DNA from: Nageia nagi
Taxonomy: Eukaryota > Plantae > Pinophyta
DNA length: 64,000 bases
NCBI GenBank assembly: GCA_050084985.1
Contig: JBITNC010000001.1
Coordinates: forward strand, 28,086,001-28,150,000
Reading direction: 5' to 3'
Position 1 is the stretch's first letter, and the number at the start of each line of letters is the position of its first letter. The position numbers and the translations under genes were made by a program. Shown piece by piece: positions 7,654-59,230 of this stretch. The notes under the pieces were generated by a model, which saw nothing but the letters and a program-made list of their open reading frames with translations, ran no database searches and was not told the DNA's origin.

Positions 7654-7655
7654 CT

Positions 7656-23925: not shown

Positions 23926-25235
23926 ATTTTTTTATGGTGTTGACGTGATTTTGTTTCCTCCCCGTTGGAAACAACGTCGTAAGGAGTGAGGTAGTGTTAT
24001 TTAAACTCCACTTGAAAGGACTTTAACCCCGAGGTTTATGCATCTTCGAAGCTCAAAGGGGCCTTCCAATGACTTTTAACAGATTCCCTACCAGTTGGTG
24101 TTCTTTTGTTGCGAAAGTGGCTCAGGTAAGAATGTGCTCAAGGTGGTTAACTCACAAAGTATTACGGACCTATTGGGTTTTCTTTTCAATCTTTTTGTGG
24201 CCTATGTGACAATACTTAATGAAAAAAATGATGGTGTCTAAGATGTAAGGATATGAAAGAGTAAGGTAAACTTGGTAGTTTACAGTGAAGTGAGTGATGA
24301 TTGTTTACCGTCGTACAGGGTTAGGGGCTTTGCTTTCATATTTATTAGGAAATTTTTATTGGGATTATCAAGTACGGGAGGAAACAACAAGGTACGAATC
24401 TTTACCAAGCAAGAACACGGGGCAGTACTCAGTATGGAAAGAAGGATATGAAGTAATGCATTAATCAGTTATCTATTCCAACAGATAAAGCCAATCAAAT
24501 ATCATAAAAGCAGAGTAATTCCAAAATATTACGACTATATTCAGATTGCAGAAACAATCATTCATCCATTTAAGAAAGATATTCAAACATCTTTCCCTAA
24601 AGTGCCAAACTTTCAAAGGAAATGCTCACAAATGTATAAATGATACAACAACATGCACTTCATGCCATATGCGCAACTACAATCCCATGAAAATAAACAA
24701 TCATACTTCCATTAATAACAGAGTTCCTAAAGTGATTAATCATACATACATACATGCAATGGAAACTTCAACTGCCAAAATATGCTCCTCAAAAGATTTG
24801 CATTCAGCTCATAAAACCAATTACAAAGTCTCTATGCTCGTATCCTTCATTTGTTTATTTAGCTCTATCCATCTATTAATCTCCGTATCTCTATCTCAAA
24901 AATAACCCAGTCAAGGGTACTTATAGTATGCATTTGACAACTTCATTAAATGAAGAGTCACCCTAACATTAATTATAGAGTTGCCCTAAACAACTATGCA
25001 ACCCTAATACCATATCAGAAAGCGCAAAAAAAACCATCAACAAAAAGCAAAACTACATCCAAACAACACCGCCAAATGTCACATCAATATCTGATCACAC
25101 CCAATCAGATCAGATTTCATCCATATGTCAAATCAATAGTCCTTTTGCAACTGTGGGAGCAAAAACTCATCCGTCATAGTGCAGAATTCAAAATATAAAA
25201 GTTTAAGTAGAAAATAAAAATAGGCATTTATCCAA

Positions 25236-27965
25236 TCATCCCTCTGTGGGACTAGCGGCATGGGAAGCAACAAAGACATCCTCAAGAATCCCATGAGACT
25301 TGTCATCGAAGAAGGCTTTGGCCTTGGTGAGTCCTACAATGAGCACACCCGGCAACTCTTCATATTTTCTGTTGTGGAAGTCAAGGATAAACTGAGAGGC
25401 ACCCTCCATATGAAACTTCCAAACAGCCAAATTTTGTTGATTCTCAATGTGGGTTCCGGCTCTCAACAAGTATTCACATCTGTAAGAGCAACTAACCGAA
25501 ACGAGAGTTCATTAACTACCATCATTACTGCTTTGACCAAAGTCTCCATGGTGGAAGTTATACTGATGTTCAATGAGGTTTACACCTTGATATCTTCAAT
25601 GGTCATCTTGGCAGCTTCTATCTCTTTTACCTGCTTATTTTTTCAAGCCAAATCCTTCCTTAATTCCTTGACCGTGTTCTCCCTCTCCATCCCTTGTCTC
25701 ACCATCTCATCCACATTGTAATTAATGGTGTCTTTGCATCCAACCCACTCAATCTTCTTTACTTTGAACTCTTTGAACTCCTTGGTGTGGACCCGCACAT
25801 CCTACGAATCCTATGGTTGTTTCTTCTTGGGATAACGCCTGTTGATGATTATTTTATCACTTTTCATAGCCACCAAAGTATCTATTTCTTCGATCATGGA
25901 GTCTTCTAACATATTTTTCCTCCTTTGGCTTGATTCATCATCGTCACTCTTATAGCTCATCTAAAGGTCTTTGATAATTGCATCAATATCAAAGTTGTAT
26001 TCTTTTTGTGGTCCTAAGCTAGTTGCAATGTTGGCCAAAGTGGTGTCCATATTTGTTAGAGCGGACTCCCTAGGGATTTCTTCAATTCTCAATTGTTGGC
26101 TCTTTGCTTTAGCTAGTTTCTCCTTACTTTTTGATGACTTGTGACCGCCATGTTCTTGTTGCTTTCTTTTCTTTCTTTGCTCCTCACTTTCTCGCTCATC
26201 TTCCTCGTCTCCCCCATCTCCAGCTACAAAAGTTCTGCTCAACTTTGAAGATTTGCTAAGGGCCGTTTGAGAAGTCTCCTTCCTAGGGGACGACCTTCTC
26301 TTCCTTCGTGGAGTGGTAGATTCGGAGAAAGCAACTTCCTTCACTGATGTAGTTCTTGTGGGTAAAGCCTCGCCAATCTCCTCCGTCTCGGATTCTCCTT
26401 CTATGTCCACAATTTGAGTATCCTGCATATTAGATTGCGAGCTTTCGTCATCCTCATGTTCCTTTTAAGTCTCTCCTTCTAAACTTGATTCATGCGAACC
26501 AGAAGATTCAAAGGATGTCTCAAAATCGGAAGATGAGCTTGAAGGTTCAGGGTCTGCATGTTGGTTTGGAGTGGGAGCGTTTTCTTGGATTTCAACCTCA
26601 GTAGGCTTTTAGAATATGTCTGCTACGTGTTCCTCAGCGGGCGTCAAGAGGTTCGGGAGAGCCAAAAGATTCTCAGCCCGAACAAGTATAATAGGCATCA
26701 TTGCGACATCCTTCGGGGTGGCATCTTCAAGCTGCTAGAGCGGGAAATTTGGATATCACATTTCTTTCATGATGGCAACATCCTTGGTAATCTCCTTGAC
26801 CACTGTGTGAATTCTAGACTTAGCCCCGCCCAAAGTGGCATGCTCTCCTATTCGTCCCTGATGTTTCCTCACTCTCGAGGAGGAAGTGGACTTGTCAGTT
26901 GAGATTGCCCAAGGATCATTCAAGCTTTTGGATCCTTCTATCAATTCTTCCTTAGCTACTAAGATCTGATGAACCTCCTAAATCTGCTTCTCCTCCCTCT
27001 TGTTCCTATATTTCTCCTTGTCTCCAAGAGGTCGATGCTTATAGATTACAAGACTCCTAAATGCCCGTTTGGAGAAACACAGAATCCTTCCTTCAGGAGC
27101 ATAGTGGGAGGCTACCTCATCCTCACAAAAATGATAGTAGGACAATTCATTGTCCATCTCCTTAGCCTCATACCAAGTCAAGCAAGTGTATTCCACGATT
27201 AAAATGGGAAGATTGGTTGTAGCATTCTTCTTTTTCCATACATTTTCATATAAAAACAATAGCTGCCTGCAAAATCCCACAAGGATGAGGCGATTGTTGG
27301 CATACCGAGGCAAGAGATAAGGCCTGACATCAAATCCATACACCCGAATGTAGGTATGTGTGGGGTCTTCCAGAAAGTAGTCAACATGCCCTCAGATAGC
27401 CTCAACGGCTGATTCGGATATCCTCTTCACCATTTGTCTACCTTTGATTTCTTTGTAAATCTGAAACTCCCATTCGTCATTCCGCATGGCATAATAGTCC
27501 CATCTAGACTCTAGCCACCACTTGGGGTAGGTTCTCCATATAGCTTTCTCCGGATTGTTCAAGGTCTCAATGTCTACATGGGCTGATTTCCTGTTTTTAC
27601 CATGGAGAAGAAAAACTAGATAGGAATTCGTATAGAATTTCTTCGAGGAGCCAATATGGGCCAATTGGAACAAGAGGGAATCACTTATCACTTTACTCCA
27701 TCTAAATTAATTTTCGATTCCCGATCACAACAATGAACCCAGTAAACTCCCTTCAAAACTTTAAGTCATCCTCTTTGCCAATGACCCTAGACAACATGCT
27801 GATGATTGTGGACATTGTGGGCTAGAAGTGTTGCCTCTTTGCATTCAGCAACTTATTCCCCATAAATCCTTGGCTCTCATTCTTGAGCTAGTCTTTGATG
27901 AGATTTGCAACTTGCGAAGATTTATCATAGTATTCCAAGGAATCTCTCTCTATGTAAATGACCCC
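25236..27965 (-). pseudogene. LTR accessory gene, copy 1 (N-terminus lost at the nested insertion)
   Basis: FYTNSYLVFLLHGKNRKSA...TYIRVYGFDVRPYLLPRYANNRLILVGFCRQLLFLYENVWKKKNATTNLP, then an S/E/K-rich linker and a predicted coiled-coil tail. Confidence 0.8.
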
Positions 27966-27988
27966 CTCATTACGCTGACATCGCACAG

Positions 27989-28708
27989 ATGCGGCTGAAT
28001 TCAAATGTCAATAAGGTGGACAGAGATTTTTTGATCAGAATAAAAGAAAAATTCCGGGAGCAATTATCTCCAAAGATCAAACAACTGATTCAACTCAGAG
28101 ATCACATTGATCTATGTTTTTCAGAGTTGAAGAAATTAGAGGCAAGTGTCAGCCTCTGTGAAAGCATTATCGACCCCATGGAGAATATAGCAAAGAGGGC
28201 AAAGAAAAAGCTAGTTGAAATTTCCGATGAGGAGCTTCACGCCCTAAATGTGGGAAATAGGGTTGAGTTGATCTCAGCGATTGACCACCCAGTCTGCGGG
28301 AAATGGGTGTGTCAAGAAATAAAAAATAATTTAATCAAGCAGTGGCAAGGGGTAGAAACCCAGAAAGCTGAAATAGCTAAATTATCTGAGGCAAGATTTC
28401 TGGGATTGTGGAAGGAAGATAGTTCACCCATCTCCGAGGCTGAAATTTTGAAATATATTCATGAAGATAGTCAAAAGACGGAGGATATAGATTTGTTACT
28501 GAATTCTTTTGATGCGTCAGCTTTGTTTGAATTTTTTGACCAATGTGCCAATAAAGGAGTGGTCCTACAGCGGATGTTGCACAAATACGGGCAAATCTCC
28601 TACGAAATTTTGAACAACACAGCTCTAGCCCAATCGAGAATAAAAGACTTTTCCGAAAATCATGCAAGTTGGGGTAAGGTTGTGCAATTTTTAGAGGTTC
28701 AGAAATAA
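27989..28708 (+). CDS. Uninterrupted helical/coiled-coil ORF segment, probably the C-terminal part of another LTR accessory gene
   Basis: 239 sense codons, K/E/L-rich, in the same position relative to the LTR TATA as the other accessory ORF tails. Product unknown. Confidence 0.5.
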   Translation: MRLNSNVNKVDRDFLIRIKEKFREQLSPKIKQLIQLRDHIDLCFSELKKLEASVSLCESIIDPMENIAKRAKKKLVEISDEELHALNVGNRVELISAIDHPVCGKWVCQEIKNNLIKQWQGVETQKAEIAKLSEARFLGLWKEDSSPISEAEILKYIHEDSQKTEDIDLLLNSFDASALFEFFDQCANKGVVLQRMLHKYGQISYEILNNTALAQSRIKDFSENHASWGKVVQFLEVQK

Positions 28709-28909
28709 CAGATTTCATTTTGTTATTATGTTTCAGACTGAGTTCTAAATTCCTCTTTGATAAAGGCGAAATTTTCCCCCAGAAGTCGCCATAATGTATA
28801 TTCATACATAATAACTTATTTATTTAGAGCCCCAGTGTACTTTACTTGCAACTATGAGTTCATTTTAAGATCTCCGGAAGTTTTGGAACAAATAAAGCGG
28901 GCCGGATAA

Positions 28910-29420
28910 AACGATGACATCACGAAAGATAGATAGTCACGTTTTGGTGAAGACCGGGTTCCGGAGATGATGAGGTCAGCAGAGAGATAATTAAAAAGCC
29001 GGAGGCAGCGGAAGTAAAGCGTTCCGGAATAAGATGATGACATCATAGAAGAAAGAATAAAGCTCAGTTGTGGAAAAGACCGGGTTCCGAAGATGATGAG
29101 GTCAGCAAAGAGATAATTGAAAAGCCGGAGGCAGCGGAAGTAAAGCGTTCCGAAATAAGATGATGACGTCATAGAAGAAAGAATAAAGCTCAGTTGTGGA
29201 AAAGACCGGGTTCCGGAGATGATGAGGTCAGCAAAGAGATAATTGAAAAGCCGGAGGCAGAGGAAGTAAAGCGTTCCGGAACATGATGATGACGTCACAG
29301 AAGATAAGATGGTCGCGTTTTGGCAAAGACCGGGTTCCGAAGATGATGAGGTCAGCAAGGGGTGATCAAAAGGCCCGGAGTCAGTGAATAAAGTTTTCCG
29401 AAATAACGATGTCACAAAGA
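28910..29420 (+). repeat. 126-bp tandem repeat (about 4 units)
   Basis: GACCGGGTTCC recurs at 28952, 29078, 29204 and 29328. Confidence 0.92.
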
Positions 29421-32120
29421 AAGAATAATTGTAGTTTTGGAAGTAGTTACCTTCCACGACATTCTCAGTTTTGTAACTGTCGGACAAATGGCATGTATGT
29501 ATGATGATAGTTAGAAGTGGCCAGAATCTTGAGGCCGTTTTGTAAACCGTTCTGTTTTCATTTTCTTGTAACTGTTATTTCTTCAGTATAAGTATATGAA
29601 AAAAAGTGAAAGAGGGGTCGGAAGCCCTAGTATTGCTCTTTACATTTGTTCTCGAAGACCTGTAGTCTTTTATCAGTAATATGAAACCATCTTGACCTTT
29701 CTTGTCTAGCACTTGTAATTGTCATTCTTAATTTGGTTACATCGTGGCAGCTTGGCTTGTTTCCTGAATGGTAATCGCGAGTTGCTAGTATAACTGTGTC
29801 TGCTACATGGTAGAGTAAAGCTGGGAAACTATTAGAGAGTGAGAGCTTGTACCGTAGCTGCTACACTAGATTCAGACCAAGGTTTCACACACTGTGAAAG
29901 CCCGCGCTGAACTAGTGATCCTCCTTTGCTTTCTCTCTTGTTACCCTAAACCTTTGCTTAAATTCCTCGCACTCTACTCTTTTATTTTTCTTTCCTGCTA
30001 CTTTTCCTACACCCAATGTATAAGGAACCGGCCTTCTCCGGAGATCAGACTGTCACATAGTCTGTTCTTGATTTACTCTGGTTAAGATTGTTCGCGGCGC
30101 ATATATTACACAATCCTAATCAACAGGAATAATGATGTATCAAATTTGACTAACTAACCCCCTCTTTCCTTTTTATAATTGCTCAAGATTGCCAAATGGC
30201 GACGTTTAAAGCAGAGTTTTCAACAAATGTACCCTTTTATGCAAGGAAGGAAATGGTCGCTAGCCCACAAGATAATGCAATTGTAACTTCTCCAAAGTGT
30301 GCAACCAGCAATGGATGAAGCAAAATGTCAGACTTAGTCTAAAATGCAGCTAAGGAATGTGGGCGCATGTATTTGGAGAGATACAAAGCTGACTATTTGA
30401 AACCATGCGACCACATGGATTGATGTTTGTATGGAAGAAAGGGGTGGTCACATGCTTCACAAGAGATACAATTATAACTTATCAAAACCATGCAAACGCT
30501 CCTTGAGCAACTTGGGCTAACACTTAGCCAATCTTGGAGATGAAAGAGGGTGGTCAGGTCTTTTCCACAAGATGCAATGGTAACCTTCTTGGACCATGCG
30601 ACCACCTTGAAGGCCAAGTTTGACTTGGTGAAACTCGGTAATGATACTTGCTTTTATATCTTTCCCCTTTGACAAGTGTCTATGTTGAACTGGCCTAAGT
30701 GGAGGTTGAATGGGCCTAAGACAAACTCCCTTGGTGCATGTTCAACATCTAGAAGGGTGGTCACATGTTTGGCCAAAGATGGGTTGGCAACTTTTCGGGA
30801 TCATGCGAACGCTTCTAGGGATCCCCTTAACTCAACACTTCGCTGATTTAGAGCCCAAAATCCTGAAAACAAGGTGGTTGCATGGTTTTTCAAAGATGAA
30901 AAAGTACCTTTTTCAAACCATGAGAACACCATTTGAACTGCAAATTGAGTGAACAAATAAACTAGGCGGCTCCTCCCTTATATATTAGCCTCATCTGCCA
31001 GATGTCCTCGTCCATATGGCCAAGGTGAAGGCCGAATGTGGCTAAGGCAAGTGCAACGTTCAAGAGGGGTTGGTCACATGAAGAGTGACTTTCTTGTACC
31101 ATGCGACCAACCTAGGGCTTAGCCAAATTTTTTGCTTTTCTTCTTAAGCTTTATGGTGACCTTTTAAGATTCGAGATACCATGCACCAAATGCAAATTCT
31201 ATACACATTCTCATGGCTCCTCAACGACTTTGCCTGGTTATTTATGATGTAGATGAGACTTTCGGAAGGTTTTTACTTTGTTGTAAATAAGTCCCAATTT
31301 AAAGTTGCACTTTGGGCTCTTTTGAACAACTTTCTTCTTATTGCTTCCCAAAATGCTCCTTGGATCAAACCCTCTGAAGCTTCCACTTTGCTTTTGAAAC
31401 TGAGGGTCCCCATCCTTTGCTAAAAAAGGAGGGGTGTGTTGAGACGTCAACACACATCTCCCCTCAAAAAGATAGCTACAACTCCACATCTATTCTTACA
31501 TATAGCTAATAGCTTCACATCTCTACATAGAGATCCCCTGCAGCTACATCTTTTCACAAAGATTTCCAACATTGGTTGTACATCTATCCTTAGACATTGT
31601 TCACATTGTACCAATTCCTCTTAAAAATAAACCATTCATTTATGAATAAAGCTACTTTATCATCTCCCACATGGTTTCTTTATTACTGATATGGATACTT
31701 TTCCAAACATTTAATTCATTCTATCTAACAACTTAGATGAGTATTTACATGCTCACTCTCTTTCACTTTGAATCATTGGTCCTTTATGAAGTTAAGATTG
31801 ATGCCATGTCCGTGGCTGCCTTGTTTATACAACAACTTGAATCCAATAGTTTGTCACCCAAGTAGATACTTATCAAAATACTTAATGACCTCATGTTTAC
31901 ATGTTCCTCAATCTCTCTTTATCCTTATCTTATAATTGATTTAGTCACTTTTATTATTACAAGGACACCAAATGTTCCAACAAGTGATATTAGAGTAATG
32001 AATAGAGAATAGACACATTCTAAGGAATTATGTCCACGTAGTTCTTCTTACACATTCCTTACCATCACTGATAGTCATTGTCTACAATCCTTCATGTCAT
32101 AAGTCAAGGCCCAAGTACCA

Positions 32121-32628
32121 TCTAGAAATCAATAAGCAAAGTGTAACAAAAAACAACAAAAACATTAACCAAAAACAACACAAAAGTTTAACGTGGAAAA
32201 CAATGATTTATGCAAAGAAAAAACAAAAGCCGAAATGCAACTTCGATCTTTTATTAATCTTAGAGACCATTACAGTTTTGCCACCCTCTCCCAACTTCAA
32301 GGGGTCATTCCCTCCTTATAGAGAACAAAGTAGTCTAACTAAAGATAGTGTTTATCAATAGACTGTTTATTTATAATGTGTCTAATAATAGAATAGATGT
32401 ATATCTATTAATAGAACAGCAATACAACAAATAATAAAACAACTGCAAATCTACTCATAGAACAATTGTACATCAATTAACAGTAAATCTATTAATAGAA
32501 CAATAGTACATCTAATAATAGAACAATTGTACATCTATTAATAGAACAATAATACGTCTAATAATAGAACAGCAGCACTATTTGTTGTAGAACATTGGAT
32601 ATCTAGATATTGACTTCACCTCCTAACA
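32121..32628 (-). mobile_element. Short LTR (about 0.5 kb) of an old Copia/TRIM-like element, with an internal 23-bp tandem repeat
   Basis: Homologous to 40325..40826; ends cttcacctcctaaca; PPT-like ttctcctatt follows. Left end approximate. Confidence 0.7.
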
Positions 32629-32832
32629 TTCTCCTATTTGAAGTTGATATATATGAATTCTTTGCCTATGTTTCTCATCCAAGTGCCAATTGCACAAAGC
32701 TACCCTTATTATGTTTTGAACAATCCCAAAGAAGTTATGCACCAATAAAACTTCTCTCCATGATAAATAGAAACATTTGAAGTGCCCCTTAAGTATCAAA
32801 TATCCACTTCACTATAGTCCAATGCTCCCTAC

Positions 32833-35800
32833 CGTTGGTATGGATTTCTTTCCTACCCTTGCAGGGCCGCAACGGAGGTAGGCTTAGTAGGAGAAAGAGG
32901 CCTCACTAACATATATGGTAAGATAGCGTTACCTATCTCCGCTCTAAGGGACTCACTACCCTACGGTGCTACTTGGCTTCGTGACCTATAGAATTGGAAT
33001 TTCAAGAGACCCATCGTGCCTCTGAACGATATAAAATGGTAGGTTGATCAGCTCAATAAAGTAGGTGAACAAGAATATTAACTCACAAATTTATAAGTAA
33101 CCTATTCAAGCCTTGCATTAACGGAAAGTTGCTAGGGTTTGTTAACAAAAAGGAAAATAAATAAAGAAAAAATGTTAAGAATGGAAGTAACTCAAAGGGA
33201 CTCGATGTGAATGACGACAATTCGCCAGTTTTGTAGGGTTTGGAAGATCTAGGATGCAGGTTTGGCAGGAACCTTCATGCAGCTATCAAATTAAAGAGGT
33301 ACACAACAAGAATGTCGGAAGTACAACTTTAAATGAGCAAGAAGCAAAGCATTAGTAAAAGACAAAACAAGATACATTCAATATTCACTCACTTATCATC
33401 GTTTTCCATGAAAGATTCCACATAAATGACATAGAAGCAAATATTTCCCAAAATACAACACTTAACGTGCTAGTATCAAACCAATAATCAATTATTCACT
33501 TCGAAAGATAATTGTTCTACTTTTCCTAAAACTCGAAGTTTTCAAAGGAAATGCCCAGAGGATATCATATAAAATATTCCACAACTCCACTAAGCGAACA
33601 GCAATCACAGCATCAATATAGAATCCACAACTCAAAAACAAATACCAAAGGCCAAGTGTTCATTTGCAAGCTTTTGTCTATTCCATTCTCTGTAAAAAAG
33701 TGACCCCAAAAGGGCTACTTATAAGACCTGAGTCTAGCAATTGTTGCCCTAATTCAACAACCATCATTTAATGAAAAGTAACTAATACAACTTAACATAA
33801 CACCAAAATGCCCTTCGAAACAATTGAAGGGTCAAGTTCTGACAACGATGTCTATCACAAACTTAACAAACATAACGCCCTTTAAAACAACTAAAGGGCC
33901 AACTCTAATTATTAGTCCTCTGATAGACTAATACTGCCAAAGTATTGACTATAGCCTAATACAACAAAATATATTTGAATTCATTGACCTTGAATCTGTG
34001 GGAGCTCAACTCATCCTCACGGTTCAAGTCTTACAACAAAATTTCACTATGCATGTAACCAATAAACAAAAATAAAATGTTATCTTTTAACATTTGCTCC
34101 CATTCAACATCGCATATGCCATAGTTCCGTATCCATAGTTGAAGAAGCCAATCTTCCTTGGAAGCTCCGCTTGCAAAATCTTTTCCATCAGGTCCATCTT
34201 GCTAGAGTAATCCCCAATCAATCTATAGGTTTTTGTCATCAGATATTACCAAGCATATATTGACCTATCATGATCAATTATCTTGCCAATTCTGATCAAG
34301 TTTACATTTTTGAGTTGGAGTAGCTCATCCAATAGGTTCTTAGTCTCCAAGACTATATTTGCTCATGACACCTTGAAACCGATTATGATGAACATACTAT
34401 AGGGTAGCATAAGTCATTCTTCCTTCTTCCAAGGACACTGATGCTTCTTTCACCATCTTCTGAACCATTGGAAAGTTCTTGTTACCCTTCTCCATATTTT
34501 CTATGATCTTTAGATTCAATGTTATCATTGTCCCTTGCTAGGTCCAGAAAGATGAATAATCCATCCCAAGCTTGCAAACGGTCTTGAGCATTGCATCGAT
34601 CGAATCTTCTCTTTTCCGATTGATCCCTATGTTCCAAGCAGCTGACATTTAGATATTGTTTGTACTCATTTTAGTTGCCTCAATGTCCTTTACTATCTTA
34701 TTCTTTTAGATCAACTGCTTCTTAAGATCTTTAAGTTCTTGTTCTCTCGTCAACCCTATTTTTTCGATTGAGGAGACCGTTGTCTAAAGAACAAGCTTAT
34801 AACCTTGCCAACCTACTTTCGCTTTTATTCTGATGGTTTCAACAATCATGTCCTCTGGCCCTTTAGGATGCTTCTTTTTAGAAAAGAGTATGTCTATAGT
34901 CATTCCATCTTCTCTCATAGTGGGTACCATTCCATGCCATATTCTCCTTCTTCACCTTCAGTTTCAATGTCTTGATCTCCCTCCTCTGCATCCTTATGAG
35001 ATTCTTGCATTCTTGCAACATAAGCATTCATATCAAAATTCCAATCTTGTCGCTCATTAGCTAGGAATCTTCGAATTGCAAGAGTTTGCATTTCTATTTC
35101 AAAAACTTGTGCTACTCCAGTTATTTCCTAATGTACGATCATCAACTGTCCTTGATGTATTTCTGAAGGCTTTGCCTGTTGTTGTGCTACTAGCTATTGG
35201 ACCATCTTCTTTCTCGATTTTCCTTGATGCTCTATTGCCTTTCTTCTCTTCCTTTGCTCTTCACTTTCATTCTTCGTCATCGCCATCTCCTACGGATATG
35301 GATTTTTTACCTTGAGGCATATGCCTTTTATGATGGGTCTTTTTAGCTTTTTGGTATGAAAAGACTTATTCTCCTCATGCGAATGTGAACAATTGGAAAA
35401 GGAGGGAGCATCCATGGGAGGTGATGTGACTGATTCTTGTATTTCATCTTCATAAACTTCATAAACAATGATAACTTCTTCCTCTCTAGAAGAGGACTAG
35501 TACAATTGATTAAATAGGGAGTATCTTGAAATGTTTGCTCTACTCTTCTTTCTGGAAGAGGATCACCATTGCTTTCTTCACCACTGCTAGACTCATCACT
35601 TCTTTCTTCTCTTGAACAACTAGTCCTCGAACTGCTAGTTCTTGAACCACTAGTCCTTGAGCTGCTTGTATTTGACCGGGAGCTCCTACTAGACCTCGAA
35701 CCACTCTCAGAGCCTGAGCTGCTCGAAATGCTACTACTATCATCTGAATCATTCTTCTTGGAATTTTTACTTTTAAGGGAGCTCCTACTATCATGACTTT

Positions 35801-38800
35801 CTCCTATTGCAGGGTCACTTCTAATAAATTCTCCTTCCTCCATATCCTGAGTCATATCTAATGGCTCATCATTGGTAGGCCCACCACAATCATCTCCAAC
35901 ACGAATCCTTCTAGGGAATCTTCATGTTCTAAGCTTCTTTGTAACTTTAGTTGGACCTTTTAGGTTTGATTTTTCAGGTCTTAAATCATCAGTGATGTTG
36001 AGAGGGGGACTCTTTCTTACTGCATCGATGAGTGAGTTTAACGGGAACTCAACGTTCCCGTGCTCCTGAATGTCTCTTTTCATCTCTTCTACTACAACTT
36101 CAAGGTGTTGTGTTGGAGATTCGAGATATTGGGCTGATCTGAAAGTGTTGTATTCTCCAGTTCTAACTTGTGTTCCCTCTGGCAATATCTCCATTATAAC
36201 TTGTGATGGCTCAGGATTTCTAATTGCATTTATTCCACTAAGCTTTGCAATTTCAAAATTAATCCCTTTTCTCATTATGTTATCCAAGTTGGGATGCATC
36301 AATAATTATTGATGGGCATTCAAGATCTCGTTGTCTTTCATAACATTCCTATATTTCTCTAAAATTCCTATGGGTTAATGGGTAATGGGTGTAGGCCAAA
36401 TTTTTGAGTAGGCCAAGCAAAATCTTCTCCACTGGCTCATAACTCTAATAAAATTGTGTGATCGGGAAATCATAAAGACAAATCTTCTTAGTTGCCGACT
36501 CCACTGCTTTCCACCTGATGCAAAAGTATTCTCTAATCACGAAGGGTAAATTAAATGTAGCATCTTTCTTTTTCCAAACATTGTTCCACAAATACAAAAT
36601 TTGTCTGCATAACTCCATCATTATTAATATGTTGTTGGCATATCTAGGTAACAATATTGGTGGCTCTTGGGAACCATATACCTATATATACGTTACACCA
36701 TATACCCATATGAGCAACGAAGGCTCTATTCTTCCTATCTAAGAGGAAATATACCAAATATGTATTCATGTAAAATTTCTTAGTTTCACCAATATGCATC
36801 AACTGCTCACTCAGTGCATTACTGAGGACTCTAATCCATCTGATTTTATTACATTCTTATCTAATAAATGAAGCCTATGAATTCAACTATGAACTCGACA
36901 TCGGTTAGTTGCTCGGTAATTCTACACAAAAGGCTGATAATCTAGGAAACTACAATGTGGAGACTAGTTTTGGGTGATTTGACCAATTTGGCCCCCGTAT
37001 AATACTAGCAATCATCTTACAACCACTGTTTGAGCAATTTTATGGGCTTACTCAACCCTCGGTAAAAGGCCATAGAGTCCTTTTCCATGTAAGTCATTCC
37101 TTCATTGGACAACTTGAAAGCCTCTTCAATTCCTTTCATTGAAAAGTCCATGATTTTATGTCCTGCGGTATCATATAAGACTCTCTCAAGAAAGTTACAT
37201 CATTTTCCCACTTCTCAAAATAATTCTTGAAACAAGGCAGCAATAGAACGATGTCTATATCAACCAATCCTTATGTGTATAGTACTTCTCAAGACAAATC
37301 AATCTTATCAATCTTCTTAATAACATCTAAAGTCTTCTCGGCATCAATATGTGACCAATCAATATCCGTGATGTCGGCCAAATTATTTTTGAAATCCCCT
37401 TTAGAAAAGTAAGGTCCTTCCATTTTTCTCAAAATTGATCAAGGTTTCCCTCACCAACCGTTCTTAACAAGGGCAAGTGACTTCTGAAGATTATCTTTGA
37501 CAACCTTGGCTTTTACTAACTTCTTCCCCTTTTCCATATTGCCTATTACCTTGTTTCCCCTTTTCGACGTTTCAGCTTCTAGGTCTTGCTCATTCCTTCT
37601 TTTCTAGACTTTTGGATCCATGTTTAAGACTTTGATGTACCCGCTACAGGATAACAAGATTAACCCTAAGCTAATGTGGAAGAGTAAAATGGGGACGAAT
37701 TGGATATGGACAATCTCATGATGGAGATAAATTAGATCAAGTTGAGGAACCATGGTTTTGACAATACAATAGAAAAGGAAATGGTGTACCAAACAGAAAG
37801 GAACTGACTCTAACTAGTACTAAAACAAACATATGTGAGAATCAAACTTTAAGATTGATACGAGCAAAAGGATTTAACTTTTTCGCCGAATACAAGCAGC
37901 AACAACCTATGAACACCTTTTGACCTTAAGAATTTTCTCTGACAAGCTTAACTCTTTCGCCTGGCAAACTTCACCTGGCAGATACTGAAAGGATGGGAAC
38001 AAACAAGGTTACTATGGTAGTTTTGACAAAACAGGGAGAACACAAAAAAAAAAGTGTCCACAAATCACAAAGGGCTGACTCTTTATACAAGACATTTCCA
38101 ACAATCTCCTAGAAACAAGTGATCAAATTTGAGTGGAAGTAATATGTATACTGAAAGAATCTGTCACTTCATATAACCTCTTTTGGAAAAAATGGTGCTC
38201 TACATGTACCTTTGAACCAAATTTTGACACTTGGCAAGCTATTCTAAAGATCTAAAGTGGTCGCACACTTTTGTTAGCTTGAAATCTTACATCCTGCAAA
38301 TTATGCGATCCATTGGGAAATTGTTTTCAAGTAGGCACCAGGTAAGCCATTTGAAAAATTCACTAACTCTCGCAAAATTATCAATCCAAGTCACCTCCTC
38401 CAATTTGTTGTACGCTGGCAAATTCCCTTTTCTCCAGGTCGCAAGTCTTAAGCATCTATCTCATGTATGCACCAGATACCGTGAGACCTCTTCTTTCAAA
38501 CTTTCACTTGCCAAATGCAAGGATCTGAGCTATGCCTACAAACTTTGGATCAAGTCACAAGTCAAGACAATAGTGCCTATATGACTTCAATAGGAATGTG
38601 GGAGTAGCCTTGAAGCCTCATCAATCTCAAATGAATTTATTTTGCTCCTTCAAAATGCCACAATTTGATCAACTCCGGTCCAATAAACCCTTCCTGCATT
38701 CATCTGGCAATTATCTATCATACTAGGTGAGGTTGCATATTCCTCGGACAATGCCTTGGCACTTTCTTCAAATCGTGCAACTCACTCGCCTATTGCAAAT

Positions 38801-46900: not shown

Positions 46901-47811
46901 ATTGTTGTAAATCTCATCTTGGGTAGAATCAAAGAGCATGGTAGTGCGGGGTGTGCTAGGGGTGGTGGGGTAGGGGAGGGGTGTGTGGGAGTGTGGAATA
47001 GAAGAGAGGACAGGTAAGCATGGTCAACTAGAGGAAGGCGGGGCACGACGAGGAAAGAAAGAATGTGTGCACAAAGGGAAGAGCTAGACAGAATGTAATC
47101 AACAATACTAGAGCCTCTAGAGTGGTGGAAACAAGTGTGATGACAGGATTGAAGGAACCAAGCAATACCATGAAGGATCAATAGGTCATGAATCTCACAA
47201 AGATTCAGAAGAAAGCTGTAGTATCCAAAAGGTAGGCCTGAGTCTACAAAGTCTCATTGGAGCAGCAAGGGTCGATGAATAGCCTGAAAGTGATGTGGAT
47301 CTGTGCTGTTGTCAAAGTACGGAGACTGAAGATTCCCTGTCCTGCCATTAATGTCTCCTAGTAATATGATCTCCCCCTGCAAGGAGTATCTGGTAATCTC
47401 TGGAAAGAGGTCAAGGTAAGGTGACTCCCCTGCCTCATGAATAGCATAGCTCGAGGAGACTGGAGGGAAATAGCATCCAGCCATATACACCCGTTTGAGG
47501 GACGGGTCCCTTGCGAGCAATATCCAAATGTAGCAGGTGTGGACATCCAAGCACTCAACTCTGACTCTAGGGAGTAATTGATCTCTGATCAAGAAGGCCA
47601 CTCCTCCTGAACCACGGCTGCTGAAACCTGTACCACCTGAGGATCTGAAAGCACAAATCCAAGAGAAACCTGAGAAGGGTGGGAATCCTTCAACAGAACT
47701 CTCATGCATCTCTGAAAAAAATGTCATATCAGACTGCTGAATGATATCCTGTGTGGTGCCTGGTGAGGACCACAACATACTGTTACAGTTCCAAGCTGAA
47801 ACTGAGAGCAC
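43939..47811 (-). mobile_element. Near full-length degenerate LINE ORF2 (APE-RT-CCHC) with 3' UTR and (TTTC)n tail
   Basis: LSVSAWNCNS...GCYFPP...ILLGDINGRTG...SSIVDYIL (APE); FRRDHRTSNHIFTLRGIIEE...CFMDFRKAFDTV and NLSKTKVVAFN...YSYLGVLF (RT); RVETN...RTCRFCSLEVVIEDHFIFHCSVY (C-terminus); ends ggacattaatataatttctttctttc. Confidence 0.9.
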
Positions 47812-48423
47812 GGAATGTTTTTACAGTTAGCTCAGAAGTCACATAAATATACTATTAATGATGATTTCTGTTTTGCAAAACAACATTTCACGAATAATAC
47901 ACATTTAATTTCTATTTGAATCTTCTCCTAACAAATTGCCATCTCAAGAAATTCAAGAGAGGAGTAGTTTTCCGTTTCTGTTAGTTTGTGTGGAGCACTG
48001 TAAAGACACACTTTTCTTTCGAGTCCTATTGACTTACTCAAATCACAACTGGACATTACTAGAATTTTTATATTCTTTTTTCCTTACATTTCCGATGAAA
48101 AGCTTTTGCAGTTTTCAAAAAAAAAAAACTCATTTCTGTTTCCTTCAAGTCTTGAGATTATAAAATCTACACAAATAATTTAAGGAAACCAGCCTCAACA
48201 CTAATAAATGGAATTTTTGCAATGACTGCATCCACAACACCTTGCGTCCCCTGTATAAAAGCAGAAGTAACACCTAAATTCACCTTCTCCCATGATTTAT
48301 GAATGGGACAGATGATATATTCTTATCAAAAAGAAAAAACAAGAAAATACATTATGAAATTGGTCATTCAATGTGAAACCAAGTCCATCCACAAAGTAAT
48401 AGAGGGACTCGGCCAAAAGCCCC

Positions 48424-48713
48424 ACACTATTAACACATAATTAGAAAATCTATTCAAATTTTTATTGATGAAAACAGAAAACATAAGAAACGGGAAAACT
48501 GGGCACTAATGATAGGCTGGTAGGAAATATCATTTAACATTAAAAAACTATCATAAGACACCTAGCCCGACACTATTAACACATAATTAGAAAATCTATT
48601 CAAATTTTTCTTGATGAAAACAGAAAACATAAGAAACGGGAAAACTGAGCACTAATGATAGGCTGGTAGGAAATATCATTTAACATTAAAAAACTATCAT
48701 AAGACACCTAGCC
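48424..48713. repeat. Recent 146-bp tandem duplication
   Basis: acactattaacacataattagaaaatc... starts at 48424 and again at 48570; only about 2 substitutions in the body. Confidence 0.95.
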
Positions 48714-49104: not shown

Positions 49105-49219
49105 CTCCAATTAAGAAAGGGGCAAAAGGGGAAAAGGAAATATAAAAATTAGCTTTTGAACTTTGATAAACTCATCAAATCAACCAAATTTTCCAAAGCA
49201 TAAACAATGATTATTCTAC

Positions 49220-51399: not shown

Positions 51400-51540
51400 G
51401 CCTTGGGACTTGGATCTTTTTTAGCAGTATCTAACACATTTGGGGGGCAAACCAATTACTGTAAGGAAGATACAATGTAAATTGTGTCAAAAGACTTTCG
51501 TTGGAGAGATTCATAAGTTCAAAATCCATGTTATGTCTTC
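51400..51540 (+). pseudogene. hAT transposase BED zinc-finger remnant
   Basis: KIQCKLCQKTFVGEIHKFKIHV fits CxxC...GGIxRxKxHL of plant hAT BED fingers. Truncated by the LTR at 51610. Confidence 0.6.
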
Positions 51541-51609
51541 TAGTGCTGAAAGTCTAAGTCATAGTCAAACTCAAGCTTCAAATGGTGCTGCTTCTCGACT
51601 TGTTGGACT

Positions 51610-53494
51610 TGTTGTGACTGACACAAAACATCCCAAAATCCTACGATTTTGGGGACCCTCACCAACTCGTGTCCACATAGTGCAATGATTTTCTATCATC
51701 CACCTCGAGAAGTTCGTAAGATTTGGGTATCATGCCTTTTGTCCCAAGCTTAAGTATTATCATTCACCTAGTCTTAGCCACGTAGAGTCAAAATCTGAAA
51801 TTACAAAAATTGGCAAAGTCTGGAAAACCAAAAGTCGGCCTTAGGCAAATTAGGGGAACCCAAGTCAAGTCGAAGCCAAATCAAGTCAAACTGGGCCACT
51901 CCAACGCCCAACGCATGCCTCAGAAAGACAAAATCTTGTCTTTCTAGGACGTGCGCTCGGTCTAGGAGTCGTCCAAACCAAAATCAAGTCCAAGAAAAGC
52001 AAATTGGGCCACTCTTAGGCCCAATGCATGCCTCCAAAAGACAAAATTTTGTCTTTCTGGAGCATGCGCTCAAGTCTGGGGGTAGTCTGGATAGGAACAA
52101 AGGATGAAGAAGGTGAGTTAGAGGCACTCCAAGTCTTGCACATGCCTCAAAAAGACAAAATCTTGTCTTTTGGGAACATGTGCTCAAGCTGGAAGGTCGC
52201 ACAGGTCAAGTTCGAAGATGAGAAAGTGGAGATCCAAGCACCCAAGAACCAAATGCATGCCTCAAAAATACAAAACCTTGTCTTTTGGGATCATGCGCTT
52301 ATGGCAGAGAGGCATCCAGTTTGATCAAAACGCAAAATTTGCCTGAGGCATGGCACCTCGAAGCTAGTCTCCAACTTGAACATGACCAAAAGGGTAGAAG
52401 CATGCCTCAGAAAGGCAAAATCTTGTCTTTTTGAAGCATGCGCTCAAACTAGGAGAGTTGAAAAGTTGGGCGCACATTTTGAAAACACAAAATCTTATCT
52501 TTTTGAAACATGTGCTTGGCTTGGGGGGTGTCTAGGTTGAGCTTGATGATCAAATTCGACAAGTTTTGGCACCAAAAAGATAAAACATTGGACAAATTCA
52601 GGTCCCAGCATGAGCATGAAGGTGAAAACAAATGAGTAGGGGAGCTAGAAGCATCAACGAGCAAAGAGCAGACGTCCTCAACCTAAGCGCATCCTTCAAA
52701 AAGACAAAATCTTGTCTTTTTTGGGCATGAGCCCATCTTGGAAGAATCCTTTAACCCGCATGTCGAGTTTCCGATAGCCAAGCATGAAATTCCGAATGTG
52801 CACACATCTCGAGGTGGGCCATCTCGACGGCCAAGTTGAATTCCTCCTCATGCATGGCTGAATAGGGTTTCTTGGGGACCAAATACAACGATAAATAAAA
52901 GCCCGAGGCGTTCATTTTCTCAAATTCAAATCGCTCTCCTCTTCTTTTCTTGCGCCAAAATTGCAGAAGAAGACCACTTTTTGAGTTGCAAATCCATCCC
53001 ATTGCTTTTAAGCCTCGCACAAGGAGTTGGGAGACAAGGCAAAGCAACGTAGGGGCAGACTCATCCCTCGAAGACCCATGCATTACTCCTGGAGAATCCC
53101 ATCACAAAATTGAGCACAATGACCACTTCCAAAAGCAGTTTGGTCGAGGATTTTGCAAGAAATCTAGAAACGTTGAGGCAAAAATGCATCATTATAATTT
53201 GTGAGAGACGAGAACACCTTCCTCAAGGGGCTAGATTCTCTAAAAATGGGTTTGCCACAATTGGAGACATGGATTGGCAAAAGGTAGACCCCATGCAGAT
53301 GAGAGAGAGGATACGTGGACATTGTATTCTTCTCTGAGCTCTCTAACTACGCCTTCTTCCTATTGGGATGCTTTTCTTTCCTACGCGGGACACTCTGAAT
53401 ATCGCGAGTGGAACTTACGAGATCCCAAGCAACATAGTTGATAATGCATTACCAATTCCCCCGATTGAAAAGGACTATGTACCTACAAGGCTCT
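51610..53494 (+). mobile_element. U3 start of a giant LTR (copy 4): terminus, palindrome array and N-terminus of the accessory gene
   Basis: TGTTGTG...ACATCCCAAAAT...GGGGACCC family terminus; 7 palindromic units at 51912-52730; TATA-like box about 52891; ORF start with IGDMDWQKVD motif. Confidence 0.72.
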
Positions 53495-56400
53495 TGTTGA
53501 AACACCCTACCAGCGACCCCAACGTCATGACGTTGTAAGGATTGTTCGCCCAATGTGTTTTCTGAATAGGGATAGATATAGAAATAAAGTGCAGTATGCC
53601 TCTTTGGAATCGGCCTCAATGGAATGGAATGAGAGGTATATACTCTGTTAACCAACGATGTTTTATTCTTTGATGTATAGAGTTTGTTCAGAGCTTTTGT
53701 GTGTGGAATTAATGATCATATTTGGTATGAAAGCATAAAGAAAGTGTAAAGGTAATACTGTAAAGAGGTGAAGGAAAACACCTTGGAGAAAGAAAGAATA
53801 CTTGGTCAGATATGAGGTTGAGGTTCCTGATGAAAAAGTGTCTAAGAGTTAATCTCTTTCGGATCGGTTAAGGACTCTTCATCCAATTCATCCAACCTTG
53901 CAAGCAAACAACTTCACATTCTAAATGCTTCAAAGAGAAGCGAGGAGCAACGTCAATTATCAGTTCTCTACGAATAGGACCGATTCAATTGAATGGAAAT
54001 GGAAGGACTCAAAGTGAATGGATCATGGTTTTGGATGAAGGACCTAACAAGATGTCATAGAAGTAGAAACTGACATAGAATACCCAATCAACTTGCATGC
54101 TAAGGACCAAGCAACAAACATAGGTAGGCTTCAAGCACTTCAGAGATAGCTTCCCTAAAGCCCAAGAGCTTTCAAAGAAATAAAACGAAAGTACACAAAC
54201 CCACTATGAGTGCCCTCAAAGAATCAATCCATAGCATCAATATGAGAAGTGTCAAACTCAAGTCTTTGCATTAACCACTTTGTATTTTCTTTGTAAAAGA
54301 GTTACATAAAAGTTTTCACAATTTTTTTCTTTTTACAAAAAATTTGAACTTGTTCTTAAAATTTTCATTCCTTGAAAAGTTTCAAACTTGTACTCTACAT
54401 AAAAGTGACCCCATGGGTTCTATTTATAGAATTTCTAGGGTTTCCAAGTGTTGCCCTAATTCTATAAAAAAATATTAAAATATTACATATTGGCCTCCTA
54501 CGACTAAGTCAGTTGACTTTTAGTGCTTTACTTTTGAGGCTAACTAATCATGAGAGTAGGGTCAATTGAGTTTTGGTGGTCAACTTTCCCGACTAACTAA
54601 TTTACAAAAATTTTAAAAGTGACAAAAATTATGATGGCTGATTTGCAATTTGCACATGCGATGCGATGATGGCCTCGAAGTCCGTGCCCATGAAGATTTC
54701 TCTATTCTTGACTCCAATATTGAGGATCTCCATTATCCCTTCATTTGCCAATAGATATGCAGTAATGGTCTTTGAAGTCTTCTTCATTTCGCTACACCAT
54801 ACTACCATATTGCGACCATATTTGAGTTGTTTGCCTGATTTGAGGACATTAATATCTTCAGCTTCGAGGTAAGTGTTGATCATCAGCTCGACCTCATTTA
54901 TTACTGTGGAATAGTCCCTGCTGCATCCATCTTCCTCGATCAACCTTAGATCAAATTGGTACTCTACTAGCTGTTTCCTTATGTTTGCTTTGAAATTTAT
55001 CCGGACTCGGATGAAATCCTGACACTTTGAAACAATGTAGAACAGCCAATCATACTAGTAAAAGAATTGATGGCAGTTTTCCGGTATTATTAGCATGCTA
55101 ACAGCTTTTCTTCTTAGCTCATGCATCATCTGATAACTATTGCCCCACCTGGTAATCAATTCACGGATCCTGTCTTAAGTGACAAACGATTCATTGTCTT
55201 CAATAAAGAAATTAGTTATTCCTAAGAATAACTTTTGAATAGCCTCTTTGGTCTCGTTAATCCACTCTTGTTTGATCGCTTGAATCTTGGTATTCAACGA
55301 GATCTGTTTCCTGATGTCTTCAACTGTCAAGTTAGTAGCTTGGATATCAACGGTCAACTTCCTCTTTTTAGCCAATTCTCTTTTCAGCTCCCTGAGCTCT
55401 ACCTTCTATGATGTGTTCTCTGTCAGCGCTGCAACATTAGAAACTATTGCATGTTGCTTGGCCAAAGTTCTGATTGCTTTACATGGCTCTTCTCGTGTTT
55501 CCACCGCTAATGCAAATTCTCCATCGGCATTTCTTTCCCTTCCTGCAACAACAGTATCTGTGATGATGGAATTATCCTTCATCGAGATGTAAGTGGCTAC
55601 ATGCTCAAGTTCATTCTTTTTGATTCTTGATCGATTTCAAGGTCAGCACGAGCTTTGGATGGATGATATGCTCTTAAGTTTTTTAAAAGCGCTGCCATGT
55701 CGAAATTGTAACTCAGCCTAGGATTGGCAACTATAGTCACTAGTCTCTTGGATTCCCTTGATGTTCTTCCTCTCTCCTTTTCTTCCTCTAGTATTCATCT
55801 TCACCTTCATCCTCTTCATTTCCTCTATCCCCTCTTGATGAGGAAGCTATTCCCTTGGAGGCCAGGGTCCTTCTTGAAGCAAGTGGTGGAGGTTTTCTCT
55901 AAGGTGTAGGTTTTCTCTGAGGTGGAGGTGTCTTCTTTGGTTGTCGAGGTGTGGAAGCCCGTGTAGATTTAAGTCTTGTTGCTTGAACGAGTTCTTCAAT
56001 GGTAAGAGGACTTATGGCCGGTATCTCTTTGACTGATGAATCCGATTCATTGCCTGAGATGTAACGTATTTCAGATATCTAGCCATCTTCTAAAGGTTCT
56101 CTCAAGAGGTCTCCTTCATCAATCTCATATTCATCCTCCCTGTCACTAGAAGGAGAAGCAGAAGAACTAGGGCTAGAATAATATAATTGTCCATCTCGGG
56201 ATGGACCTCTGGGAGGGACTTCCACCAACTTTTTTAAGCATTTGTATGGGTGCGAAGTGCTTCCAGTCTCTTTAGTGCTTCTTATTTCTTGCGATAATCC
56301 TTGTATGGTCTGATCAATAGTTTGCCCTGGTTGAACAATGAGTGTGGCATATTGACCAGACTGCCCCTAGGTCAATTTCACTAAAGGTGAAATTGGTGGC

Positions 56401-59230
56401 AGTTCACACGGAATTGGAGGATTCTTTTTAAGAATTATCAAAGGATGTATCCTGGCTACTGCATTCTCCTCTTGCAGACCTCTTTTCTTCTTCTTCTTGG
56501 TCAAGGTCTGCTTGAGCTTCTCTTCTGCCGCTAAGTCCCTGTTTATCTTGCTAATTTGCTTCATGTCATCTATATTTCTGTACCTTTCGAGCTTTCCTAG
56601 GTACTTGTGAGGGTAATTGGTTTGCTATATTTTCTTTTAGAATGCACCGATTACCCCTTCAGGATCATAGTACTCTACTACATGTTCTACTGTGAAGCAG
56701 TAATATGCCAGGTCCATATTCATCGTCTTGACTTGACACCATGACGTGCATTTGTACTCCCCTATGCGGATAGGTAATTTGCATGTGGTGGCACCTTTCT
56801 TGCACCAGACTTTCTAGTGTAAGTACAAGTGTCTGCAAAATTCCATCAGAATGAACCGATCACTTGCATAATGAGGAAGTTTGTACGGTGGCTCAATTGA
56901 CCCGTAAACCCTGATATATGTGGCATCTATTTCTTCGAGATAAAAATATGCATGTCCTCGAAGAACTTTGATTGCCGCTTGTGATATCCTGGTCATATTG
57001 ACGGTCCCCTTTACCTCTGCATATATACGGCACTCGTATCCTTCATTCATCATTTTGAATTCGTCCCACCGGTTTTCCAACATGAATCTAGAGTAACTCC
57101 ACCATACTGGCATTTCTAGGTCAAAGAGGTACTTGGTATCTGCTATGGCGGATTTTCTATTCTTGCCATGTAGAAGCAGGAATACCAAGTAAGTGCTCAT
57201 GTAGAATCTTTTTGTTTCTACAATTCTCGACAACTATTGAGCTAAGCAATCGCTGATCACCTTACTCCATCCAATCCCTTTGCCTCTGCTGATCTGATGT
57301 ATGAAGCCCATGAACTCCTTTCTGAATCTTTGATCATTTTCTTGTCCCGTGATACTGCACAGCATACTGATAATGGTCGAGACTATAGGATAGAATTCTA
57401 TCCTTCTGGGTTGACTTAAGGCCTTTACCTTGTAATCTTTGCACTCATCAACTAACCAATATCTTATCAAGTTCCCCGACTTGGTAAGGCTGTTATAGAA
57501 TCTGATGGACTCTTTCATGGAGAATATGATGCCTTTGTTACTCCATGCAAATGCGCTCTCTATTCTTTCCATTGTGAAATCTAGTACCTTTGTGCCTTCA
57601 TTGTCGAGGAAGACTCTCCTTTGTGTCCCAATATCATGCTACCTCAAGGTACAATTCTGGGAATGGAGCGGTAAAAGGGATCAAAGAAGCTTCAACGATC
57701 CTGCATTGAGCAAGTGTATCGTTGGACAATCGTTTGTGTGGGATCTTGGCCATCTTCTCTAATGACTTTACAAGGTCAATGTTTGCCAAATCTGTGTTCC
57801 TAATTTGTCCAAGGCCATCTACTAGCATTGTTGTAGGGAAAAGAGCCTTCCCTCATTTTTCCAAGGTGATCAAGCTAGTCTTCATGAGCTTCTCCATCTG
57901 GAGCTCTTTGTTTTTCTTATCAATGCTCATGATTCAAACCTATGCAGTACAACAAGGTCTTAGGAGTGGTATTGAATATCTCTGGAGCGATTATGGAGCA
58001 AAAAAGAGAGTCAAATTTTTGGCTTATTTTTGGGTTTTTTCAGAAGCTAAGTGTGGATTTTAGTGAATTTTTAAGTTCGTCGAAATTGGGAAACAAGTAC
58101 ATGGGGTGTTGGCAAATAAAATTAGGAGGCTTGTGGCCAAGTCTTGAAGAAATATTTCGAGTTTTCAAGGTACGAATTAACTCGCTGTTTTCTTAGCCCA
58201 TGTATTTGTTTTTAACAGGTTTTTGCAACTTCGAAGCTTGGAAAGATAGGGATCTAAAATGGGTTCTCAAGCTTCGTTTTTGGGAAGTGAATGATGGAGG
58301 CTACTCTCCTATATGCAATCTATCATTTTGGTATTCACTTCGAAGTTTGGATCTCTCACAATTTTGGAATTTTTTGGCCTTCAAAAAGTGTTTTTTTGTG
58401 TTTTTTCACTTTTTTTCAAAAAGCTTGAAAATGGTGAAAATGGTCAAAAGATAGGGGTGGTCCGAAATTTTGAAAATTTTTAAAAAATGGATTTGACCTA
58501 ATAGGTGGATGGAGGATGGAATTCTAAGATCCTAGAAAAATTTTGATAAGGTTTTGGCTTATTTTGGATCTTGTGAGCAATTTTGTGAGGTTTGTGAGGA
58601 TTTTCCTCAAAAATGGGTGCATGGAGGATCAAGGAGAGTGTTTGCGAAGCAAATGAGAGGCTTAAGGGGGTATTTATAGGTTTTTTGTGCCTTTTGCATG
58701 CTCTTTAGTGGGTTTTTGATCTAAAAAGTGCTCTAGGGGTGCATTTTGCATAGTTTTTAAGTTTTTGGAGCCTTTAAACACTCCATAGGATTGCAAACCT
58801 ATGCCTAGCTTTTTGAGGCATTTCCTTGGGTCAAAATGGAAAATTTCAAAGTTTAAATGTGATTCAAATCACTTCCTTCATCCATATATGTGCCCAAAAT
58901 CGAATTTTGATGACTTTTGGGCTTTCTCCTTGTATCTAGGCACCATTTTTCACTTTTTTGGGTTCTCCAATAGCTTGGAAACCTGCGCTTGACCTTTCCG
59001 GGCATTTCTAGAGCAAAATTTCGAAAATTTGTAAGTTTAAACATGCTTGGAATGCCCTTTTCCATGCAACCATGTGAAAAATTTTGAAATTTTTGAAACA
59101 TTTTCACTCGTCTTCATGCTAGGCGCTAATTTTCACTTTGTTGGTTTTAGAAAAATCAACAAACCTGCGCCTAGGATTTTGGGCACTTCTCTTGCTCAAA
59201 TTCTTCAAATCCAAGATATGCAACACCTCA
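53495..59230 (-). mobile_element. Giant LTR (copy 3) with U3 accessory gene; U3 start truncated
   Basis: R/U5 homologous to 13200-14330, retro-TATA signature at 54421, ORF remnant 54629-57930, second TATA at 58671 and CTAGGCG motif pairs. Boundaries approximate. Confidence 0.72.
54629..57930 (-). pseudogene. LTR accessory gene, copy 3 (best preserved, about 1,100 codons)
   Basis: IRNTDLANID...WSKVISDCL...FYMSTYLVFLLLHGKNRKSA...TYIRVYGSIEPPYKLPHYASDRFILMEFCR; basic KKKKKRG segment; helical tail. Putative acceptor tgcatag| lies 9 nt before the ATG at 57930. Confidence 0.82.

Follow-up and report, generated by a model that had tools for sequence, protein, structure and literature searches.

A large gene probably carried within giant Gypsy long terminal repeats of Nageia nagi, with a possible structural link of its product to VANC and PMD proteins

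Introduction

Can a plant retrotransposon keep a protein-coding gene inside its long terminal repeat (LTR), or do its extra open reading frames (ORFs) stand between the two LTRs? Retroviral U3 genes such as sag of mouse mammary tumor virus (MMTV) lie within U3 and are present in both LTRs. The question arises for plants from a 64,000-bp stretch of the Nageia nagi genome (GenBank assembly GCA_050084985.1, contig JBITNC010000001.1, positions 28,086,001–28,150,000, forward strand; hereafter the window), where an initial annotation had recognized one protein family at four sites, here called copies 1–4, and had placed the gene inside the LTRs of Gypsy elements. In the earlier reports considered here, extra ORFs are internal and LTR maxima are 5–6.5 kb (PMC6317226, PMC4408406, PMC6431247, PMC5751070, PMC11728184, PMC5735166, PMC11963269, PMC7264820, 10.1101/2024.09.27.615353, 10.64898/2026.08.24.746577), and our search of the open-access literature found no report of an ORF located inside an LTR of plants or of Gypsy elements.

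Here we argue that the window probably holds gene-bearing giant LTRs, with a moderate structural lead from their product to VANC/PMD proteins. The interpretation that we prefer, and regard as somewhat probable, is that the copies are the decayed remains of non-chromovirus Gypsy elements, likely of the TatII or Athila type, whose 7–8 kb LTR would combine a U3 motif array, a TATA-like box and a PMD/VANC-like anti-silencing gene of about 1,100 codons.

Position of the ORF within the element

All three long copies (copies 1–3, minus strand) share one arrangement downstream of the gene: the ORF stop, 200–363 bp, a TAGGGCAAC..TATA block, 893–1,069 bp, and a CAACA-type terminus. The block lies 258, 363 and 200 bp past the stops of copies 1, 2 and 3, respectively, which agrees with the initial annotation of ORFs ending 200–370 bp before a common TATA signature. 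An ordinary Athila/Tat-type element would place the extra ORF and array internally on the 3′ side, its LTR being confined to some 1.2 kb around the TATA block; copy 1 would then be a tandem or chimeric structure where a shared LTR precedes the primer binding site (PBS) plus gag. However, in none of five intervals running from the ORF stop to the TATA block (copies 1, 2 and 3, the related sequence L002, and a unit at 21 kb) was a polypurine tract (PPT) with a TG start found, while other LTRs in the window do show a purine tract. L002 independently spans the ORF end, the TATA block and R. An internal ORF is also at odds with a contig variant that skips 130 of copy 3's 200 bp (54489–54620), and with the lack of pol upstream of any array.

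A further argument against an internal ORF comes from the far-upstream end of the unit. A shared 5′ signature (TGTTG..ACACCCC..GGGGACCC) is present in copy 1 (31452), in copy 4 (51610), in an ORF-less unit (17218), at 487 and in a piece of the sequence L003. In all three runs, contigs mapped on L003 pile up on the signature and fall 90–200-fold just beyond its TG, where 21, 11 and 19 contigs leave with dissimilar sequence. Therefore, judging from these contigs, the signature is an insertion end of the element with heterogeneous flanks, and in copy 1 it matches the 3′ end. A PPT directly upstream of it was merely hinted at by six contigs of one run (G-run on the element strand, agreement 0.51) and was not counted. 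Within L003 (1612–1655), the 45-bp signature reached 10–25 times the contig depth of the adjoining LTR sequence, so that, compared with the ORF sampled here, it would seem to be common to far more subfamilies.

The signature of L003 stands about 270–325 bp from the copy-3 promoter region; since other contigs continue from the same promoter into the array, the array has been lost from L003. In L001, where the array is not deleted, monomers of about 184 bp number at least nine; there are also a TATA-like box, a leader of 760 nt and an open frame of 758 codons with 83% identity to copy 3. Summing the parts gives at least ~7.6 kb for the copy-3 type; copy 2 itself extends over at least 7.1 kb. Assembled from overlapping copies, the order is terminus, array, TATA-like box, leader, splice acceptor, ORF, TATA block, R/U5 and CAACA end. 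The separate TATA-like boxes upstream of the ORF that had been noted in copies 3 and 4 were found at 58679 (minus) and 52890 (plus), and copy 1 has another at 30177 (minus).

Copy 1 is the only copy that runs on into a PBS-like site and gag, so that a single molecule joins 5′ terminus, ORF, U5, PBS and gag, all on the minus strand. Its putative 5′ LTR (23938–31452) measures 7,515 bp, of which a foreign piece makes up 2,173 bp, and has TG..CA inverted termini, TGTTGACGT...ACGTCAACA, with a 9-bp match between the 5′ and 3′ ends; TGTTGACGT stands at 31452 and ACGTCAACA ends at 23938, and this 9-mer occurs only twice on both strands of the 64 kb. Within the LTR follow a U3 motif array (30180–31400; nine GGTCGCATG-like copies at ≤1 mismatch, in both orientations), the TATA-like box (30168–30177), which from its sequence is a putative ORF promoter, an ORF remnant with stops and frameshifts (25236–27965), and the TAGGGCAAC..TATA block (24970–24992), a putative genomic-RNA promoter. 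The foreign piece (27953–30125) replaces the leader and first ~130 codons. Beyond the LTR lie the PBS-like site (23911–23925) and a gag remnant (22440–23736; PF03732 at ~23358–23131, E = 1e-7). No pol follows, and none was found anywhere in the window; gag relatives were absent from the viral contigs. The termini, the PBS as a site and gag thus bear out the initial annotation of copy 1; the PBS-like site is tentatively assigned to tRNA-Asn, with mismatches to the tRNA 3′ sequence. The foreign piece, of retroelement origin, lacks a clean target site duplication (TSD) and holds a 126-bp tandem array and, on the plus strand, a 248-aa ORF, with a purine tract on the minus strand; by eye it looks like the 3′ part of a Tat element that carries an antisense ORF.

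The other copies are less complete. Copy 2 (32833–39945, minus), 5′-truncated and lying inside a deleted Copia element, retains a motif array, the ORF (34088–37621; 1,178 codon-lengths, broken, with an acceptor-like site 22 nt before the ATG), the TATA block, U5 and a CCAAC end. Copy 3 (53361–59216, minus), also 5′-truncated, has about two array monomers, the TATA-like box at 58679, a 750-nt leader, the ORF (54629–57930; 1,100 codon-lengths, broken, with a branch point/polypyrimidine/YAG acceptor ending at 57940), the TATA block at 54429, R/U5 and its end at 53361. A segment at 59569–59216 was considered as its own 5′ end and rejected, as it matches another LTR (18618–18306) and most contigs depart at 59216. 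Copy 4 (51610–53360, plus) comprises the 5′ signature, a palindromic repeat array, the TATA-like box and the ORF N-terminus from 53110.

Several observations weigh against a gene inside the LTR. Neither a two-LTR element of this family nor a TSD-bounded, ORF-bearing solo LTR was observed in the window, and no TSD was detected by eye or by script around copies 1–4 or the ORF-less unit. Copy 1 is preceded by a purine tract, its halves are separated by the foreign piece, and 12 nt lie between its LTR end and the PBS-like site; the purine tract and the TSD-less piece would suit an internal ORF, as would the known cases of forward 3′ extra ORFs, which, like repeat arrays, stand between pol and the 3′ LTR. 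Contig depth of U5 relative to the ORF, a measure that does not give copy number, was ~0.8, 2.1, 3.6 and 2.0 in four runs (3 U5 bins and 9 ORF bins averaged by hand, boundary bins left out), and the U5 excess in three of them fits either an internal ORF or abundant ORF-less derivatives. Taken together, the five intervals without PPT and TG, the terminal nature of the signature, the linkage in copy 1 and the purifying selection described below support an ORF within the LTR, and we are fairly confident that it lies in the U3 of an LTR of likely 7–8 kb; an internal ORF appears distinctly unlikely. The suggestion that the gene survives solo-LTR formation found no support in the window, where the only two-ended standalone unit (13032–17218, minus) has neither ORF nor TSD. 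This derivative shares with the copy-3 type the 5′ signature, array monomer, leader remnant, TATA block and U5, and has a CCCAACA end.

The stretch from signature to CAACA might instead be a separate mobile unit, or a fusion in which a Mutator-derived VANC-like gene and its repeats were joined to a short LTR, rather than a reverse-transcribed U3. VANC is indeed Mutator-encoded, and most units of the window that bear the ORF are devoid of gag/pol and TSDs, which again tells against a U3 gene. However, the termini are of the retroviral TGTTG..CAACA form without long terminal inverted repeats (TIRs) or transposase, copy 1 continues into PBS and gag, and the unit order is kept across subfamilies with only ~40% protein identity, so we consider such an origin very improbable.

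Protein family, selection and expression

A family profile built from 150 homologue pieces (the 150 listed of 186 matches at E ≤ 0.001 among 1.84 billion proteins) matched the window at four places only, i.e., copy 1 (27974–26936), copy 2 (37460–36270), copy 3 (57930–56466) and copy 4 (53155–53316, iE = 7e-9), and tBLASTn found copies 1–3 mutually similar (E down to 1e-69). The four sites of the initial annotation were thus recovered, with corrections to the completeness of copy 1 and to the extent of copy 4, which spans profile positions 9–61 only and stops at ~53360, where the copy 3 LTR end abuts in opposite orientation. Its supposed continuation to 53494 was rejected: 53361–53494 is that LTR 3′ end, homologous to 13032–13340 and to L002. 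Copies 1–3 are 37.5–45.2% identical pairwise over shared profile columns, and 42.6–48.6% over the 251 columns common to all three, and therefore represent, at the level of sequence, old and separate subfamilies. The tails are homologous as well (copies 1/2, 34%, E = 5e-13; copies 1/3 and 2/3, 22%, E ~1e-5).

Stops and frameshifts break every long copy, whose ORF spans amount to 1178 (copy 2), 1100 (copy 3) and, partial, 910 (copy 1) codon-lengths. The relative P0072 is uninterrupted over 1,010 aa and has the same layout of a folded N-terminus, an acidic linker and a helical tail. A homologue in Taxus chinensis is the hypothetical protein KAH9296670.1. A search for longer homologues found none. 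Viral contigs, scanned for P0002 and P0072 as well as for gag and the 5′ motif, yielded no match, nor did prokaryote genomes. Two further frames were rejected as family members on sequence comparison, the 144-aa ORF at 21570–21136, which is unrelated, and a frame of 1,055 codon-lengths at 6772–3605.

Where neutral drift would give a dN/dS (ratio of nonsynonymous to synonymous substitution rates) of about 1, L001 and copy 3 gave 0.23 (0.17–0.31; 751 codons, 9 stop codons skipped), with values of 0.16 for the N-domain and 0.51 for the linker, and four further pairs gave 0.21–0.47. These values indicate that the ORF is under purifying selection. The dS of the domain (0.46) exceeds the leader divergence (0.16), probably because of methylation-driven transitions, which may somewhat lower the ratio.

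In copies 2 and 3, L001 and L002, the ATG is preceded at 9–22 nt by a branch point, pyrimidine tract and YAG; in copy 4 this is not clearly so. Because of this acceptor and the upstream ATGs in the leaders, a spliced message seems likely; no canonical splice donor was found in the leader. The conservation of the acceptor also allows an env-like spliced message as an alternative to a second promoter. The two-promoter LTR of the initial annotation accordingly keeps its TATA-like boxes, and the promoter role is read from them.

Predicted fold and possible function

The predicted fold had one outstanding match among 48,161 chains, the plant transposon-encoded DNA-binding protein VANC21 (PDB 9LNK), and the resemblance is weak. 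Foldseek gave no match at E ≤ 0.001 in PDB or BFVD, a PDB sequence search returned a single chance match, and the ESM Atlas had no usable match for P0002. The Pfam families PMD, Transposase_28, Transposase_32, ATHILA ORF1 and DUF1985 matched none of 59 members at E ≤ 0.1 (15 matched families), and were absent among the families listed (25 of 48) for 135 members at E ≤ 1. P0002 has basic clusters. An env-like membrane protein was rejected, as all three proteins, including full-length P0072, lack a transmembrane segment (maximum 19-residue hydropathy 0.95–1.48). From the model, we consider it reasonably likely that the fold is related to VANC/PMD. A domain of DNA-transposon type, which would have spoken against an LTR gene, is suggested insofar as VANC21 is Mutator-encoded, but the gene stands in an LTR context and not between TIRs; LTR termini, PBS and gag surround it, in place of a Mutator-like setting.

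VANC proteins bind short motifs that are multiplied in tandem repeats and differ between subfamilies (PMC5735166). Arrays are likewise found here directly upstream of the ORF. There are 10 GGTCGCATG-like sites in copy 1 and 12 in copy 2, in both orientations and nearly all upstream of the ORF; CTAGGCGC..GCGCCTAG inverted pairs occur in each L001 monomer (14 sites), and a palindrome occurs 14 times in copy 4, against Markov expectations of 0.02–0.57. As the motifs were counted after having been chosen from the same data, the enrichment serves for description only. By their sequences, the arrays are subfamily-specific. Copies 1 and 2 share a motif and yet are not the closest protein pair; because of this, co-evolution of array and protein is put forward here only as possible.

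How could such a unit have arisen and acted? Most likely, the plus-strand start would have shifted to a site upstream of what had been a 3′ array and an extra ORF, so that both became U3 and both LTRs came to carry the gene. A U3 promoter would then drive a spliced mRNA that ends at the poly(A) site of the LTR, and its product is predicted to be a nuclear factor that would contact the inverted motif pairs through its ~450-aa N-terminal domain, possibly dimerizing via the helical tail. Binding would keep the nearby genomic-RNA promoter of the cognate subfamily unsilenced, in cis or in trans, and LTRs that keep the array without the ORF (e.g., 17218–13032) would be free riders. That the protein counters silencing at the element's own arrays is a possibility that we rate somewhat below even. 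Alternatively, the LTR location may be right and the protein a lineage-specific accessory factor, e.g., for particles, integration targeting or transcription, with the VANC match reflecting an ancient PMD-like fold or chance. We regard this as unlikely, since the sole outstanding match is to a DNA-binding protein encoded by a plant transposon, and subfamily-specific motif arrays lie directly upstream, as in the VANC system. The full scheme remains tentative, namely that in a gymnosperm Gypsy family a sequence-specific gene of VANC/PMD type was brought into a 7–8 kb LTR along with a promoter of its own and the target repeats with which it co-evolves, so that every LTR, solos included, would be an anti-silencing module able to serve its subfamily in trans.

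Comparison with known systems

TG..CA termini, forward extra ORFs, long LTRs and tandem arrays recall TatII and Athila elements of the OTA superclade of Ty3/Gypsy (Neumann et al., 2019, PMC6317226), where tRNA-Asn-type PBS occur in 15% of TatII and 12% of Athila elements, and also in Retand. There the extra ORFs are treated as internal, whereas here ORF and array appear in the U3 of a unit of at least 7 kb; reported LTRs reach ~5 kb (PMC6317226) and 6.5 kb in Ogre (PMC6431247). Among 27 TatII elements of REXdb, forward ORFs are 5′ in 23% and 3′ in 26%, and PMC4408406 reports no extra ORF for its lineage II. The extra ORFs of Ogre/TatIII with PMD or PMD-coiled coil (PMC4408406) show a similar folded N-terminal domain, linker and helical tail in a Tat-like element, but are given there as internal, and antisense in TatIII, and here Pfam PMD is not matched. 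PMD-C (MAIN/MAIL1) is reported to be similar to the DUF1985 of VANC (10.1101/2024.09.27.615353). VANC of VANDAL elements belongs to Mutator DNA transposons (PMC5735166; PDB 9LNK), unlike the LTR location here; relative to VANC21, the present protein, known from sequence and prediction, is 8–9% identical and has an extra ~160-aa domain and a long helical tail. No open-access literature on the VANC21 structure was found. Genes of the MMTV sag type are much shorter and belong to animal retroviruses, and no sequence or functional relation is implied.

If true, this would be a concrete and testable counter-silencing system in plant retrotransposons, analogous to VANC. It would suggest what the extra ORFs and repeat arrays of Tat/Athila elements, long unexplained, are for, and would bear on how LTR elements remained active in gymnosperms with their very large and heavily methylated genomes. 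In widely used pipelines, LTR length is capped near 7 kb or less. Plant LTR length would then exceed the published 5–6.5 kb, and elements of at least 20 kb built in this way would escape standard length limits, so that an abundant family could be mis-annotated and counts of solo and intact elements affected.

Other features of the window

A related LTR 3′ part (19358–21570, minus) carries the unrelated 144-aa ORF, which ends 283 bp before the common TATA block, and a U5 ending in TTGACAACA; it may represent a second kind of LTR-borne ORF. Copy-3-type LTR ends sit inverted inside ORFs of the same family at two independent loci (L002 1152–1864 and window 53361), hinting from their arrangement at self-insertion or rearrangement. 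The Copia-type LTRs flanking copy 2 (40826–40389 and 32628–32209, minus) are 80% identical and have 23-bp internal repeats; gag and reverse transcriptase remnants mark the junctions, and most of pol is deleted.

The window as a whole is retroelement-filled intronic DNA. Exon-like frames on the minus strand (~62046–61884, 61730–61200 and 11102–10822), presumably of a TIC236/SSG4-like host gene, a label that we use provisionally, are separated by tens of kb of nested elements. A young element (2432–8509, minus) has 855-bp LTRs 97.8% identical, a Met-type PBS, and a nearly open interior frame of 1,055 codon-lengths (one stop) with no Pfam match and no recognizable pol; it is possibly a non-autonomous CRM-like element. 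Two decayed reverse transcriptase regions resembling those of long interspersed nuclear elements (44800–47820 and 69–1960) are 68–73% alike and mutually inverted, and a recent 146-bp tandem duplication in intron DNA (48418–48713) is 98% identical between its halves.
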